Source of the DNA: Candidatus Hodarchaeota archaeon
GTDB taxonomy: Archaea; Asgardarchaeota; Lokiarchaeia; Sigyniarchaeales; SOKP01
Length of the DNA: 43,540 nucleotides
Assembly: GCA_048886305.1 (NCBI GenBank)
Contig: JBHLKV010000004.1
Coordinates: 1-43,540 of the forward strand
Direction: 5' to 3'
The notes below the pieces were generated by a model. That model was not told the origin of the DNA, made no database searches, and saw only the letters and a program-made list of their open reading frames with translations. Below are positions 4,164 to 9,536 of this stretch, in pieces. A program made the position numbers and the translations under genes. Within the stretch, counting starts at the first letter, position 1. Each line of letters opens with the position of its first letter.

Positions 4164-5087
4164 ATGAGTGAAGATTATATTCAAGATTATATTAAGGCTG
4201 GAAAAGCAGTAATAGCTGCCAAGAAGTTAGCAAGGAAACTCATTCATCCGGGGGCTTTATTTTTAGAAATTGCTAATAATTGCGAAGCTGAAATAATAAA
4301 AAACGGGGCAAGTTTATCCTTTCCTATTAATATGTCTTTAAATGAGATAGCTGCTCATTATAGCCCACCAATTGATGATGATACTATTGTTCCAGAAAGT
4401 GGTTTGCTAAAAATTGATTTGGGGGCTCATTATAATGGATATATTGCAGATTCTGCTTTTACAGTTAATATTGATGAAGATCCAAAGCTACAAAATTATA
4501 TTGATGCCGCAGAAGAAGGTCTTGAAGCTGCAATTGCGCTCTTTAAGCCAGGCACTAAATTATATGAGTTAGGAGGTGCAATTGAAGAAAAAATTAAAAA
4601 TTTTGGTTTAAAACCAATTAGAAATCTTGGTGGTCATGAATTAAAGCAATATAATCTCCATGCAGGTTCATTTATACCAAATTATTTAGAAAAAAGTCAT
4701 AACAATATATTAAAAGCCGGAGATGCATTTGCATGTGAACCATTCGCAACTTCAGGAGAAGGATTTGTTGAAAATGGAAAACATGCCTATATCTATCGAT
4801 TTGTGAAAAGAGTTAAGAAAAATATGTCCTATGAGCTACAAAACTATATGAATAAAATTGAACAAAATTTCAAACGACTTCCATTTTCTCCAAGATGGAT
4901 CGAAAATAGCAATTTAATACCTAAGAGTAGAATAATGAGAATTATCGTTGATGATTTTCAAAACAAATATCATATCCTCGATAAATATCCTATTTTAATA
5001 GAAAGAAGACGTGAACCAGTAGCTCAACAAGAACATACAATAGTAATTGATTGGGAAGGGAATACAATTGTCACCACTAAAGAATGA
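4164..5087 (+). CDS. map: Type II methionine aminopeptidase
   Basis: SFPINMSLNEIAAHY, KIDLGAHYNGYIADSAFT, NLGGH, EPF, AQQEHT metal-ligand motifs. Confidence 0.95.
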   Translation: MSEDYIQDYIKAGKAVIAAKKLARKLIHPGALFLEIANNCEAEIIKNGASLSFPINMSLNEIAAHYSPPIDDDTIVPESGLLKIDLGAHYNGYIADSAFTVNIDEDPKLQNYIDAAEEGLEAAIALFKPGTKLYELGGAIEEKIKNFGLKPIRNLGGHELKQYNLHAGSFIPNYLEKSHNNILKAGDAFACEPFATSGEGFVENGKHAYIYRFVKRVKKNMSYELQNYMNKIEQNFKRLPFSPRWIENSNLIPKSRIMRIIVDDFQNKYHILDKYPILIERRREPVAQQEHTIVIDWEGNTIVTTKE

Positions 5088-5919
5088 CCTTAAAGATAAA
5101 TTATCTGTTGTCATTTTATGTGCTGGAGAGGGAACAAGACTTAAAAAAATTACAAAAATAACTCCAAAGCCATTAATAAAAATAGTAAAATTAAATGGTA
5201 TTTCAATTCTCCATCATACTATTAATAATTTAATTAAATTTGAAATAAGCAAAATTGGAATTACTATTGGTTATTTAGGAGATATTATCCATGATTTTAT
5301 TTCGACTTTTAAAAAAAATAACCAAAACTTACAAGATAAATTAATAATAATAGATACTGAAAATCAGTATAAATTTGGTCCACTGTACTCATTTTTATCG
5401 ATAACCAAAAATCATGATTTCTTTTCATCGAGCAATTACTACTTAGTAATTCCAGGTGATACTATTTTTGATTATAACATATTCAAAGACGTTTTATCTA
5501 TACTTTCTAATAACTTTCATTCAATTAAGGAATATCCTTTTGTATTTTATAGGAAGATAGGATTAAAACCATTAGAAAAACTATATGATATAACTAGAAT
5601 GATTTCTAATGCTGAAATTGCAAAAATAGGTTCAGAAATTATTTTAAGAAAAATTTCTCAATTAAAAGTTGGGGAAATTACTCCTGATAATGTTTTAAAT
5701 CAATTAATACCTATTAATGTATTTAGTTACGATTCAATTAATGAAATCTTAAATTTAAATCGAGAAAAATTAAGTAAAACAATTTGGGAAACTTTAAACT
5801 ATATGATTTTTAATGGAAAGAAAGTCCTTGCTTTTGAAATTGAGAATAAATACGATTTTTATGATATTGATTATGCAGATGATACAAAAAAAATCAAAAA
5901 AAAAAAAGATGGACAATAG
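5068..5919 (+). CDS. NTP-transferase family (sugar-phosphate nucleotidyltransferase-like)
   Basis: VILCAGEGTRL...TPKPLI signature, GD motif, C-terminal YDID. Start uncertain (TTG 5047 or TTG 5068). Confidence 0.8.
   Translation: MSPLKNDLKDKLSVVILCAGEGTRLKKITKITPKPLIKIVKLNGISILHHTINNLIKFEISKIGITIGYLGDIIHDFISTFKKNNQNLQDKLIIIDTENQYKFGPLYSFLSITKNHDFFSSSNYYLVIPGDTIFDYNIFKDVLSILSNNFHSIKEYPFVFYRKIGLKPLEKLYDITRMISNAEIAKIGSEIILRKISQLKVGEITPDNVLNQLIPINVFSYDSINEILNLNREKLSKTIWETLNYMIFNGKKVLAFEIENKYDFYDIDYADDTKKIKKKKDGQ
5886..5907 (-). terminator. Oligo-U terminator of the putative ncRNA
   Basis: U12-GA-U8 on the minus strand immediately after the terminal helix; overlaps the lysine-rich tail of the convergent CDS. 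Confidence 0.55.
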
Positions 5920-6343
5920 GAACTCAGATTTTGCTCAGATTTGTAGTTAGTAAGAAATCAATGATTACATACCACTATGATCCAAATCTGTAATCAAAGC
6001 TCCTATTTTTAATGTTAGACTCTGTTTCAGTGTCTCGTGTTTCAAAAAAAAGTACACACTCGACAAGAATTTGGGTAACAAAGTCTGTGGGTCTCAATTT
6101 TCATTAGTAAATTAATGATTTGAGTGTAAATCCATTAAAGCTGTTATCAAGCGCTCGCTTGGATGTTTATCTTTAGTAAATAACTTTAGAAAAGATACAG
6201 AGTATTTGCTTACTCCTGAAATATCAAATAAAAAATTATTGTCGTAAAAAACGGTTACATTAGAAAAATTGTTACAACTTTGTCGATATTCGTATTGATT
6301 TTATGTAACTACTCCAATGCATTATTAGACCTATTATCCATCC
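5908..6343 (-). ncRNA. Putative novel ~435-nt structured non-coding RNA
   Basis: No ORF >=60 aa. The 5' end (6342-6330) pairs with the 3' end (5920-5908) over 13 bp with a U-G wobble on the minus strand only. About 10 further helices found by eye, plus an upstream TATA and a downstream U12 tract. Confidence 0.72.
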
Positions 6344-6366
6344 AATTAGATATATAACAATTTGAC

Positions 6367-6381
6367 TATTTAAATGTTATT
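6367..6381 (-). promoter_or_regulatory. Archaeal BRE/TATA promoter for the putative ncRNA
   Basis: Minus strand reads AATAACA-TTTAAATA; the box ends 24 nt upstream of G6343, typical archaeal spacing. AT-rich background lowers specificity. Confidence 0.55.
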
Positions 6382-6480
6382 ATTAATATTTAAAGATTAT
6401 TTATCCTTTTAAAGCACAAATTTTAAAGATTTTCTATTTTGAAATAATATATAAATCTGAATTCACTTTATTTATAAAAC

Positions 6481-6867
6481 ATGTCAGATCAAGGACAAAT
6501 ACCTATTAAAATTGAATTGTTTGGCATTGGATCGTTAGAAGGTCATATTATTCGGCATATAGCACCTCTTTCAGCAGACGTAATTCTTAATAAAATGCCT
6601 ATTATCCTTCGGGGACGATTTAGCTTCGGATCTAAAAAATACTGGACACTACCTGGTATAGAAATTTATAAAGGACTAAATCCTAAGTCAGTTTCAGAAG
6701 TCAAAGAGGGGGATATTGTATATAATCCTAAATCTGATGAATTAATAATAATTATAGAAGCTCTTGAAATGTCAAATAAGGTAAATATAGTAGGAAAAGT
6801 GGTAAGGAATCTAAAATTATTATTAAAAGCAAGGAATGGATTAACTACTAAAATTCTTAGGATATAG
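6481..6867 (+). CDS. Cyclophilin-like fold protein (TM1367/DUF369-like)
   Basis: APLSADVILNKMPI, VKEGDIVYNP, VNIVGKV pattern. Confidence 0.65.
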   Translation: MSDQGQIPIKIELFGIGSLEGHIIRHIAPLSADVILNKMPIILRGRFSFGSKKYWTLPGIEIYKGLNPKSVSEVKEGDIVYNPKSDELIIIIEALEMSNKVNIVGKVVRNLKLLLKARNGLTTKILRI

Positions 6868-6892
6868 ATTAAATAAAATACATAGTTTAAAC

Positions 6893-7678
6893 ATGGCTAT
6901 TTCGAGAAGTCTATCGATTGTGTTTCTGCTATTTTATGTTAGCGTTATAATATATTTGTTATTGTATTTATTTGTCCCCGATTTTCAAGAGGTTATAAAT
7001 AATTCAAGACAAAAATTAGCTTACATAACAGAGGGTACAAATTATTTTTGGGCACTTTTTATCTCCCTGTTTATATGTCTTCTTGGTAGTGCTAGTATCG
7101 GATTTCCTGTGCCTTTTCCCTTTATCCTCTTTTTCTTTTCAAATTCAATCATCGCAGAATTTGGGGGTAGTGGTGTAATACTAATCTTTGGACTTGGGAT
7201 CGCTGGTGGGTTAGGTGCTGCATTAGGCGAACTTACAAGTTTTTTATTGGGAAGAGGAGCTCAGAAAATTAGTTCTATATCTGAATCAAAAACTTTAGAA
7301 AATGTTCAGGGGTTTGGTAGATTAGTCTTAGAGCATCCAAAAAGTATGTATCTATATATATTTATTGCGGCAGCTCTTCCAATTCCGGATGATCCCCTAT
7401 GGATAGCTTTAGGAATGTCAAAGGAAAAAATAAATTTTGTTAAGTGCCTTCTTTTTGGATGGATTGGTAAAAATGTTACGACCTTATTTTATGTTTTTCT
7501 CCCCATTTTGATTAATTTAGGAATAGCTGCTTCTGAAGTCGAGCTTAATGATGTTTCAAGCGTTATAACTGAAGCATTAATGCTTATAGCTACTCTTACA
7601 ATTATGTTTTTTATTTTGGCATTTGATTGGAATAAGTTTATTGATAAAAGAAGTAAAACCAAAGCTAAAGAGGATTAA
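6893..7678 (+). CDS. DedA/VTT (SNARE-associated) family membrane protein
   Basis: GGLGAALGELTSFLLGRG and AALPIPDDPLWIALG motifs; multiple TM segments. Confidence 0.8.
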   Translation: MAISRSLSIVFLLFYVSVIIYLLLYLFVPDFQEVINNSRQKLAYITEGTNYFWALFISLFICLLGSASIGFPVPFPFILFFFSNSIIAEFGGSGVILIFGLGIAGGLGAALGELTSFLLGRGAQKISSISESKTLENVQGFGRLVLEHPKSMYLYIFIAAALPIPDDPLWIALGMSKEKINFVKCLLFGWIGKNVTTLFYVFLPILINLGIAASEVELNDVSSVITEALMLIATLTIMFFILAFDWNKFIDKRSKTKAKED

Positions 7679-7872: not shown

Positions 7873-8199
7873 TTAAGTAAATGATTTCATTTTGAGCGTA
7901 ATTTCAATTTTAGAAATAAGATCCTTTTTGTTTTTATTATTTTCATTTTTTCTCCTGTAGTTTCCTCCTTGTCCTTTGTTAATAAATGGACGACTCCCCA
8001 AAGACACATTTGCGATTTCTAAACTAGGATACATTCTATGCTTAAGAATTTCTGCAACTTCTACGGCAGTACTGATTTCTTCCCCTTCTCCTTTTATTAA
8101 AAGGGCTTTTTTACCGCCCGATAATGCAAAAATCGCATCTTTTATTGTTTTTTCTTTTTCAGCTCTCTTTTTTATGATGAGTGTTGTTTCATTTGCCAT
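7873..8199 (-). CDS. Alba-family nucleic-acid-binding protein (divergent)
   Basis: IKGEGEEISTAVEVAEILK and ISKIEITL match Alba KARG.AIS.AVDVAE and VS.IEI.L patterns. Confidence 0.8.
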   Translation of the reverse strand: MANETTLIIKKRAEKEKTIKDAIFALSGGKKALLIKGEGEEISTAVEVAEILKHRMYPSLEIANVSLGSRPFINKGQGGNYRRKNENNKNKKDLISKIEITLKMKSFT

Positions 8200-8414
8200 G
8201 ATAGAAAATCAGTAGTAAAAATATTTTCTAATTAATTGAAAAGAAGTATGATATAACAATTAATACTCCAATTAATATAAAATTTTGTTAAATTCTTAAA
8301 CTGATATAAGATCTCGCAATATTTAAGTTTTAAAAAAAGATTTGAAAAAATATTCAATATGTCGAATGTTCTTAATATCTAATTAAGATATTTCAAGAAA
8401 TTAATTTAAATAAA

Positions 8415-9536
8415 TTAGGCGAGAAAATTTAGTTCTGCTCTTGAATTTAGCTCTTCCAATACTTTATTATATTCAGAACTTCTTTCTTCAAAATATTCGA
8501 TTACTTTTCTTTCATCAGTATCTAAGTAATCATAATAGGGAAATATTACCTCTATACGTTTAGAAAAATCATTCATTAATCGTTCGTACCATTCATTAGG
8601 TTTTTTCAACAAATTTTGGACTTTTTTTCGCAGTTTTTCTTTTCGTATTTCATATTTTTCTTGCTCATTATTTTCGATTAACTTATCTAATTCATCATAA
8701 ATATCGGATATTACATTCTCTAATTTTTCCCTAAATTTAGGAATTCGATATGATTTTTTGAAAAAAGCAGGATCCCATTCATATAGATAACGTTCATCCT
8801 CTCCAGCCTCTTGTTCATCGTCAGTTACTATTATATCTTCTCTGGGTACTAAAATTAATCCAAAATTTCTTTGTAATTGAGCCAATGCTTTCTTACGGAG
8901 AATTTCATCAATATAATTGATCTCATCTATTACTTTATCCATGTTTTTATTGATTTTTTCCACTTCTTTTTCAGAATTTTTGAGCATTACTTCTTTCTTT
9001 AACTCATATTTCAATTCGATAAGATTATAAGTAGAAGAAATGCCCCTATGTGGGTCCTTTAATCTTAACCCTGCTATTCCTAAATAATGTGCATCTGATT
9101 TTGTTTCACAATGATCAAAGACTAATCCAAGAGCATACGGATTCGGGATTTGGTAACCTAATTGAGTCATACAGTCAATTGGAGAATAAAAAAAACCAAA
9201 ACCAGGATGTGTGTGCCACCAACCAATTATAAAGTCATTTCTTCTATCTTGAATAGATCTTTCAAAGACGGAGGCATCTATCTGTGCCATATCAACGTAT
9301 TGTTTATTTTCATATTTTACTCCTGCTCTATCTCCAACTACCATTGGAATTGCATCTTTTACTATAACTTCAGCTTCATTTTCTATTGATCCTATTAAAA
9401 TACCATATACTTCTCGCCATTTACTCTCATCTAAACGATCATTTGCATATCTTATAGCATAACCATAAATTTTTCTATATGCTTTATATGTCAAACGAGC
9501 AGGTGAATAGTAAGGATCAATCTTTTTCTTTTTCAT
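8415..9536 (-). CDS. MPN+/JAMM metalloisopeptidase (Rpn11/CSN5-like) with helical C-terminus
   Basis: EVYGILIG and IIGWWHTHPGFGFFYSPIDCMTQ give an intact E...HxH-x7-SxxD motif. Confidence 0.88.
   Translation of the reverse strand: MKKKKIDPYYSPARLTYKAYRKIYGYAIRYANDRLDESKWREVYGILIGSIENEAEVIVKDAIPMVVGDRAGVKYENKQYVDMAQIDASVFERSIQDRRNDFIIGWWHTHPGFGFFYSPIDCMTQLGYQIPNPYALGLVFDHCETKSDAHYLGIAGLRLKDPHRGISSTYNLIELKYELKKEVMLKNSEKEVEKINKNMDKVIDEINYIDEILRKKALAQLQRNFGLILVPREDIIVTDDEQEAGEDERYLYEWDPAFFKKSYRIPKFREKLENVISDIYDELDKLIENNEQEKYEIRKEKLRKKVQNLLKKPNEWYERLMNDFSKRIEVIFPYYDYLDTDERKVIEYFEERSSEYNKVLEELNSRAELNFLA

Follow-up and report, generated by a model that had tools for sequence, protein, structure and literature searches.

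A probable non-coding RNA gene with paired ends, held at one chromosomal place in a family of Asgard archaea

The DNA analysed here, called the window throughout, is a stretch of 43,540 nucleotides (nt) from contig JBHLKV010000004.1 of an Asgard archaeal genome (GenBank assembly GCA_048886305.1). Its minus strand very probably carries a genuine non-coding RNA (ncRNA) gene at 6343-5896. The gene is confined to one family of Promethearchaeia (Asgard archaea), in which it occurs in at least nine of 13 genera as a single copy, at the same chromosomal place and by vertical inheritance. The two ends of the RNA form a covarying helix, P1. Taken as a whole, the best explanation would be a stable, independently transcribed RNA, single-copy and vertically inherited within one family, that acts as the scaffold of a ribonucleoprotein (RNP), and we regard the case for this explanation as evenly balanced. 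The window's own assembly (G000) comprises 2.98 Mb in 293 contigs and is 94% complete.

The gene occupies a gap of about 560 nt between an NTP_transferase-family open reading frame (ORF; 5047-5919, plus strand) and an ORF of 128 amino acids (aa; 6481-6867, plus strand). The gap holds no ORF of note, as an earlier note on this DNA, made from the sequence alone, had stated. The gene and its boundary signals are the following.

5896-6343, minus strand: ncRNA gene, from the inferred start G6343 through the body to a U12 tail; its length up to the end of the terminal helix is about 436 nt
6367-6381, minus strand: promoter, a purine-rich stretch like a transcription factor B recognition element (BRE), then the TATA box TTTAAATA at 6374-6367
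6330-6343, minus strand: 5' strand of P1, GGAUGGAUAAUAGG, family core GGAYAAUAG
5908-5920, minus strand: 3' strand of P1, CCUAUUGUCCAUC, family core CUAUURUCC, with U12 directly after it
5896-5907, minus strand: U12 run, an oligo-U terminator; a U-run also follows CUAUURUCC in homologues

The start at G6343 was inferred from TATA spacing, the box lying about 24 nt upstream. The promoter consensus TTAATAAnAAnATTTAAATA is kept in homologue alignments, again about 24 nt before the 5' end. Both the TATA box at this distance and the U12 after the terminal helix (5907-5896) had been pointed out in the earlier note and were found on checking. Its proposal of an independent minus-strand transcription unit is likewise borne out, with promoter, 5' end, clamp helix and U-run terminator kept together in 86 genomes. 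Among 28 loci examined, 23 have a TATA box 24-25 nt upstream of the 5' signature, defined as GGAYAAUAG-N(2-16)-CAUUGG, and 17 of those 23 TATA-bearing loci have CUAUURUCC plus a U-run 359-632 nt downstream.

P1 covaries across the family. In the window, the helix of 13 base pairs (bp) first proposed in the earlier note joins 6342-6330 with 5920-5908, and every one of the 13 pairs is canonical, including a single U-G. Comparison across the family used 67 sequences with 54 distinct end pairs, anchored at GGAYA and CUAUURUCC. Among the distinct end pairs P1 comprises 11 positions, each of them canonical in 70-100% of cases. The fourth pair is CG in 42, UG in six, UA in six and CA in none, with the U-A form in genera g12, g19 and g23. 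The tenth is GC in 21, UA in 21, AU in eight, UG in two and AC in two. Cells of P1 are paired in 85% of cases; shifting the partner strand by 1-3 positions lowers this share to 33-57%. Sequences lacking the inner AGG extend P1 outward through the U-tail (GAAAAGGACAAU / AUUGUCCUUUUC). In the folding ensemble of the window copy the outer seven pairs have probabilities of 0.97-1.0 and the inner six of 0.03-0.63, competing with an internal AAUAGG; the inner pairs probably score lower because block J of the 3' domain, described below, competes for the 3' strand.

The RNA gene is restricted to a single family. Among 400 genomes of the phylum, a strict pattern, TTTAWATA-N(18-30)-GGAYAATAG-N(2-16)-CATTGG, is found in 86, every one of them a member of one family of Promethearchaeia; it has no match in 265 genomes from 32 other families, and its control pattern has no matches. 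The strict pattern occurs once per genome, save in one genome with two contigs. The 5' signature is present in 100 of 134 family genomes and in nine of 13 genera (g12, 5/5; g14, 1/1; g15, 4/6; g16, 4/4; g19, 1/1; g21, 8/10; g22, 38/42; g23, 4/7; g1, 35/53) and was not found in genera g13, g17, g18 and g20, and a control pattern for it gave about 15 matches in 154 genomes. A covariance model of the 3' domain, R1, with 109 positions and 23 pairs, matches 89 of 135 family genomes, one match each, at 80-126 bits on the sense strand. Second matches of R1 are the antisense of the same loci only, at 31-37 bits. By genus, R1 matches 48 of 53 genomes in g1 plus the window's genome, 34 of 42 in g22, five of ten in g21 and the one genome in g19, and none in the nine other genera of the family. 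We take the gene to be present also in those genera without an R1 match in which the 5' signature is found.

Among 40 relatives, the closest (G012) is 79% identical over the whole element, and many same-genus genomes match the promoter plus 5' end and the 3' domain at the correct spacing. The relatives are metagenome-assembled genomes (MAGs) of Promethearchaeota and Promethearchaeia, consistent with the Asgard host assumed in the earlier note. Homologues are about 360-640 nt long. Genus g1 includes two short forms, L017 (G022) and L058 (G073), with excised lengths of 365 and 399 nt. Block B, hairpin C and a large part of the 5' region are missing from them, but the promoter, P1, stem E/F and the 3' domain are retained. 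In G120, a genome of g22, the RNA gene lies on two contigs (C57:2856-2908 and C117:483-535), with near-identical 5' regions and two 3'-domain matches, which may be due to heterogeneity among strains or to duplication in the assembly and not to a second gene. The sister family f2 yields two 5'-signature matches, without the promoter and without the 3' end. No gene-free gap comparable to that of the window lies downstream of map in five genomes of f2 and f4; two closed f2 genomes have no gap there, and one genome has 360 nt. Carriage by viruses was considered and rejected. At least 119 stretches with the 5' motif occur in IMG/VR, but none of the 80 loci returned has a TATA box or the 3' end, so these matches are attributed to chance.

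The chromosomal place of the gene is conserved as well. The order map, NTP_transferase, RNA gene on the opposite strand, p128 (the 128-aa protein) and VTT is found in 15 of 16 same-genus RNA-bearing loci, the sixteenth ending at a contig edge. In g22, g21 and g19, all 20 loci show aspS-map-NTP_transferase-[gap]-p128-VTT(-Alba-JAB). The RNA of g15 is still convergent to map-NTP_transferase though p128-VTT lies about 9.5 kb off, and that of g16 keeps its place though NTP_transferase is lost. The earlier note had named missing conservation in such syntenic gaps as a result that would count against an RNA; conservation was found instead.

The conserved ends might also be read at the level of DNA, either as the remnant of a domesticated transposon with 9-bp terminal inverted repeats or as an array of palindromes that proteins bind, for instance a replication origin. 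The conserved words GGACAATAG ... CTATTGTCC are inverted repeats of each other and flank a variable interior that is rich in A+T and contains T-runs; palindromic TTTCAnTGAAA-like words, which may resemble origin-recognition boxes, lie near the 3' end in g15 and g23. Miniature inverted-repeat transposable elements (MITEs), which the earlier note would have suspected had dispersed copies been found, have the same conserved 9-bp terminal inverted repeats and a variable A+T-rich interior of a few hundred bases. The window RNA differs from them in being present once per genome at a syntenic place, with a promoter and a terminator at its edges and U-G intermediates of the RNA type. Its stretch occurs once in the window's assembly, where the remaining matches are at most 40 nt long and of low complexity. 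One full-length copy in this assembly, and one R1 match per genome in 89 genomes, led us to reject a MITE. A DNA-level element of any kind is most unlikely: there is one copy per genome at a fixed place, the spacing from TATA to the first repeat is constant, and the second repeat is directly followed by a U-run. The U-G pairs in P1 (6 of 54 distinct ends) and the G-U pairs in the 3' hairpins of g23 would be mismatches in DNA. Covariance-model scores are strongly asymmetric between the strands, P1 is lengthened through the U-tail, and runs labelled as RNA cover the gene.

Known RNA families offer no relative for the gene. None of the 4227 families of Rfam 15 matches the window at gathering score. 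With the threshold relaxed to E<=10, the window has three chance-level matches, to the ES056 small RNA (sRNA) and to two C/D small nucleolar RNA families (E 1.6-8.7), and at E<=5 eight homologue loci from eight genera have two unrelated matches only, both outside the RNA gene. The earlier note could not name the class of this RNA, and the Rfam scan that it proposed gave no strong match in the window or the eight homologues. It had also reported signatures of RNase P, signal recognition particle (SRP) RNA, transfer RNA (tRNA) and transfer-messenger RNA (tmRNA) to be absent; family-model and ARAGORN scans agree, ARAGORN finding no tRNA or tmRNA gene in 5700-6600.

Archaeal RNase P RNA is similar in being single-copy and several hundred nt long, with its own promoter and with its 5' and 3' ends in a closing helix. 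It differs in G+C content (0.46 versus 0.30 here), and the window RNA falls outside its family model (RF00373). That model has no match at the locus, and the true RNase P RNA of the genome is at G000:C182:4373-4695 (130.5 bits, model positions 1-288). A P4-like complementarity seen by eye in the window copy is not kept in relatives. SRP RNA (RF01857) was rejected too, with no match at the locus and a full-length model match at G000:C63:7174-7494. This SRP RNA (locus L029) scores 82.4 bits, below the gathering score of 96.5, and would thus be missed by standard Rfam annotation. Box C/D sRNAs share with the window RNA UGAU- and CUGA-like words, here in the 3' domain, and differ in size and architecture. 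Their matches, with E 3.9-8.7, score 18 bits where the cut-offs are 45-48. Of 51 homologues in the alignment to the 3'-domain model, 46 have CGGA in place of the D-like CUGA, and a suspected kink-turn in J/L pairs as a plain helix with two U-G pairs; a C/D sRNA and a kink-turn were both rejected.

Y RNAs of Ro60 particles likewise have a terminal helix around a variable interior, followed by an oligo-U tail. The window RNA is 4-6 times longer, however, and the Rfam scans gave no Y_RNA match. The Ro60 domain PF05731 (TROVE) has no match in the 94% complete G000, while controls were positive in Deinococcus and Bacteroides, and this candidate was rejected. Orphan RNAs include OLE, GOLLD, ROOL and raiA of bacteria and the HgcC-type RNAs of archaea with A+T-rich genomes. 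As generally described, these are large, lineage-restricted, conserved and independently transcribed, with their biochemical function open, and the window RNA is like them in these respects. It differs from these descriptions in having no Rfam match, in its Asgard host, in a G+C content at background and in a fast-evolving interior.

The gene shows no sign of coding for protein. No reading frame is conserved across genera, and the longest stop-free frame per RNA has a median of 53 aa. Peptide matches across genera span 19-30 aa and fall on both strands, in shifting frames, at conserved nucleotide blocks. Among public sequencing runs, 20 share words with 5600-6900, and two of these are labelled metatranscriptomic (X20 and X12). 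Their contigs are as follows.

6092-6331, no strand information: contig from X20 (RNA-seq cDNA), 240 nt with 7 differences
6077-6309, no strand information: contig from X12, a run that may be DNA, 233 nt with 2 differences

Both contigs lie wholly within the RNA gene, and neither run covers 5600-6040 or 6348-6900 or any part of the flanking genes, a hint that expression is confined to the RNA gene. The X20 contig crosses both U6 runs at 6251-6230. All 30 bins are covered by the DNA run X1, which may be the source sample, and 27 of them by the DNA run X2, showing that the locus is present in sediment metagenomes.

Between its ends the RNA has a set of conserved elements and some local ones, which in the window copy are placed as follows.

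6311-6320, minus strand: block B, GCAUUGGAGU, family consensus GCAUUGGUUU
6230-6251, minus strand: two U6 runs at RNA positions of about 98 and 114, matching the family U-run at about 95-114
6215-6200 and 6197-6168, minus strand: two local hairpins with pair probabilities of 0.7-1.0, common only to the closest relative
6030-6070, minus strand: hairpin H/I, with AUUCUUGUCGAG, a U8 loop (6051-6044) and GAAACACGAGACAC, drawn from per-genus folds and pair counts and paired in the minimum-free-energy (MFE) fold of the window copy
5921-6013, minus strand: 3' domain J/K/L, with AAUAGGAGCUUUGAUU, the K hairpin and AAUCUGAGUU, adjoining the 3' strand of P1

Consensus folds of g1 and g22 give the same helices, namely P1, hairpin C, hairpin D, the E/F stem, hairpin H/I and the 3' domain. 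In both genera the long E/F stem reads UGUUCC-UGU-AGUGCU ... AGCACU-UU-GGAGCA, hairpin D encloses the first U-run and hairpin H/I the second. In other genera it is the loop of hairpin D that contains the family U-run. The g1 fold has 63 pairs with 90.7% paired and 35 doubly changed cells, against 14.0 in shuffles (0/500 reach this value); the g22 fold has 75 pairs with 89.5% paired and 30 doubly changed cells, against 12.2 (0/500). In the 3' domain, which R1 scores at 82.7 bits in the window (5904-6013), the share of paired cells across 51 sequences is 93.9%. Of 21 representatives from ten genera, 20 have a local hairpin domain whose end lies 0-5 nt from the 3' strand of P1, with sequences unrelated between genera; examples are GUUCCAUUGGAAU / GUUUCAAUGGAAC with G-U pairs in g23 and GCUUUGAU / AUCGGAGC in g1. 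Distant genera share only the promoter, P1, GCAUUGGUUU, the 3'-terminal hairpin and, except in g12, the U-run near position 100. Single-sequence MFE folds differ among homologues except in P1, hairpin C, stem E/F and the 3' domain, RNAalifold on a raw alignment of 16 sequences recovered the 3' domain only, and a column-pair scan of the alignment was noisy. Covariation of the inner helices appears more modest than that of P1, and it is supportive, not proof.

Several observations concern alternative pairings. The 5' segment (AAUAG..GCAUUGG) resembles block J, AAUAGGAGCUUUGAU, and either could pair with the 3' strand, a likeness that may reflect a conformational switch or an old internal duplication. 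In g12 (L122, G043; RNA positions of about 20-30 and 68-77), the 3' segment CUAAUGCAAA has two complements, block B, UUUGCAUUGG, and a similar word further into the RNA, AUUGCAUUAA. This double complementarity mirrors the duality of block B and block J in g1 and g22. The E/F stem is broken in two complementary ways: G000 is without the 5' strand UGUUCCUGUAGUGC, and G012 keeps UGUUCCUGUAGUGC and is without the 3' strand AGCACUUUGGAGCA (window 6140-6220; L009, about 1700-1800).

The earlier note had drawn an inner fold of its own, which in the light of the folding ensemble and of the closest relative was probably mostly wrong. Two helices by which the ends were thought to keep zipping inward (6312-6306 with 5949-5943 and 6301-6294 with 5962-5955), and a long-range helix (6286-6280 with 6066-6060), are complementary on paper but have an ensemble probability of 0.0. 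In G012 the three are broken at 1/7, 3/8 and 2/7 pairs, respectively, without compensation. Four of the seven local hairpins drawn there reach a probability of at least 0.5 (6215-6200, 6197-6168, 6161-6148 and 6124-6093), although G012 has lost two of these in part or entirely; the other three are at or below 0.03. RNAfold gives 6343-5896 an energy of -105.2 kcal/mol, with z = -4.35 on the minus strand and z = -3.86 on the plus strand. The two values are similar, so folding energy does not fix the strand. The evidence at the RNA level consists of conservation, covariation and the strand asymmetry of the covariance model (80-126 versus 31-37 bits), rather than of folding energy.

How might such an RNA act? 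The conserved BRE/TATA promoter sets its start at the first G of GGAYAAUAG, and its 5' end pairs with the 3' end (CUAUURUCC) in a helix of at least 11 bp, with the oligo-U terminator directly after. Between the ends are the near-invariant GCAUUGGUUU, the U-run near position 100, several hairpins and the hairpin domain adjoining the 3' strand of P1. The end clamp could shield both termini from exonucleases and so stabilise the RNA. Helices of invariant sequence (P1, E/F and J/L), small U/G-rich internal loops and U-rich hairpin loops may be protein-binding sites, and the RNA would then be the scaffold of a lineage-specific RNP. The scaffold reading follows from taking these helices and loops as protein sites. 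It is a tentative choice of mode of action, and somewhat more likely wrong than right. A further step would see here a new class of Asgard-specific, end-clamped scaffold RNA whose U-rich loops recruit SmAP/Lsm rings, in the manner of small nuclear RNPs but in archaea related to eukaryotes, with GCAUUGGUUU as an RNA-recognising element. We consider this more specific proposal improbable; the idea of Sm-like proteins arises because of the U-runs alone. In g1 and g22 a hairpin loop contains the U-run near position 100. G follows a minority, 30, of the 93 runs that belong to the 12 commonest flank types. Runs of at least six U number 1.75 per RNA, compared with 0.74 expected from composition.

A number of observations weigh against a structured, stable scaffold. 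The G+C content of 0.300 equals the genome background of 0.298, whereas RNase P RNA and SRP RNA of the same genome reach 0.464 and 0.449, and the z of eight homologues ranges from -1.1 to -4.8 relative to dinucleotide shuffles. With background G+C and a modest folding z, the description as highly structured in the earlier note was overstated. The 3' domain is mostly invariant, with double changes in only three of 23 pairs among 51 sequences. Counted as pairs rather than cells, double changes number 10 in g1 against 6.8 in shuffles (20/500 reach) and 11 in g22 against 7.7 (14/500). Percentages of paired cells are partly circular, since the alignments that are counted also supplied the consensus structures, and the sequences are relatives of one another. 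The interior is not alignable between distant genera, and the window's divergent sub-lineage has lost one strand of E/F. Conserved internal runs of U6-U12 should act as archaeal terminators and may yield shorter isoforms without the end clamp. The contigs from public runs carry neither strand, ends nor level, and one of the runs may be DNA.

The conservation of block B raises the alternative of a trans-acting regulatory RNA, in which the invariant GCAUUGGUUU would be a seed that pairs with target RNAs. The U-run near position 100 may then end an unclamped seed isoform of about 110 nt, while full-length read-through would hide the 5' end in P1. Only P1 is more conserved across the family than block B, and this holds throughout the genera while the remainder diverges. 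Its predicted internal partners differ between genera, as expected if none were real, and most genera have a run of at least six U at positions 64-114, in line with the excess of U-runs over composition. Even so, we think a regulatory RNA unlikely. The mean unpaired probability of block B is 0.36, below the mean of 0.43 for the whole RNA, and block B pairs with the 3' region beside P1 at 0.5-1.0 in g12 and g16; it is neither consistently open nor consistently paired with one partner. The X20 contig reads across both U6 runs in the window's type of RNA, and a length of 360-630 nt with conserved 3' modules far exceeds what a seed carrier needs. No target was found, and the excess of complementary words in the genome lies in ordinary coding contexts. 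The word CTCCAATGC, complementary to block B, is present 19 times and the reversed word, a poor control, once; the sites of CTCCAATGC lie in ordinary coding sequence, and this target search was set aside. The window's MAG has no small- or large-subunit ribosomal RNA as a possible partner of block B.

Size, single copy, end clamp, helices of invariant sequence with internal loops and lineage restriction could belong to a catalytic or self-assembling large RNA, in which a tertiary core, or contacts between copies, would arise from the conserved modules. Large bacterial orphan RNAs may provide a parallel. The background G+C, the weak z, the lack of a core conserved across the family outside the termini and the absence of a match to any Rfam ribozyme family make this a poor candidate, and we rate it as quite improbable.

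The constant surroundings of the gene suggest one more alternative, which involves its neighbours.

5047-5919, plus strand: convergent neighbour, the NTP_transferase-family ORF, whose tail overlaps the 3' end of the RNA gene
6481-6867, plus strand: divergent neighbour, the 128-aa protein p128, weakly cyclophilin-like

Through its transcript or its promoter and terminator, a cis-acting element could control the convergent map-NTP_transferase operon, by antisense action or collision, or the divergent p128-VTT operon, through a shared promoter region. Convergence with map-NTP_transferase is constant, divergence with p128 holds in most genera, and in the window the NTP_transferase ORF overlaps the 3' end of the RNA. 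A cis-acting role is nevertheless very improbable, since the RNA persists without NTP_transferase in g16 and with p128-VTT far away in g15. Interference would need neither covariation nor conserved internal modules, and a strong RNA terminator stands before the neighbour. The NTP_transferase ORF crosses the A-run that is the RNA terminator on the other strand and stops within the 3' helix of the RNA (window 5863-5919). Its relatives match only to residue 271 of 290, and the last 19 codons may thus be non-coding. Profile matches of p128 are sub-threshold only (PF04126, E 0.003; PF18050, E 0.032); the protein is kept across the RNA-bearing family, and its identity with the sister family is about 33%. 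Genes with Alba and JAB/MPN domains lie two and three genes beyond the RNA (window 7873-9536), in the same order in other genera.

The gene represents a new RNA family of Promethearchaeia without a detectable relative, although its general kind, a stable end-clamped ncRNA, is familiar. Setting aside the universal RNAs (ribosomal RNA, tRNA, RNase P, SRP and guide sRNAs), no paper describing a lineage-specific structured ncRNA in Asgard archaea was found in a search of articles without their supplements, where an unnamed candidate is possible. A large single-copy RNA with a strong promoter of its own, a fixed place across the family and invariant motifs implies a housekeeping-type function that protein-centred annotation has missed. 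The RNA provides a defined transcript that can be sought in enrichments or metatranscriptomes; it can also serve as bait for protein partners and to mark the family. Should its partners prove to be Sm-like or other eukaryote-like RNA-binding proteins, the finding would bear on the origin of RNP machines before eukaryotes.

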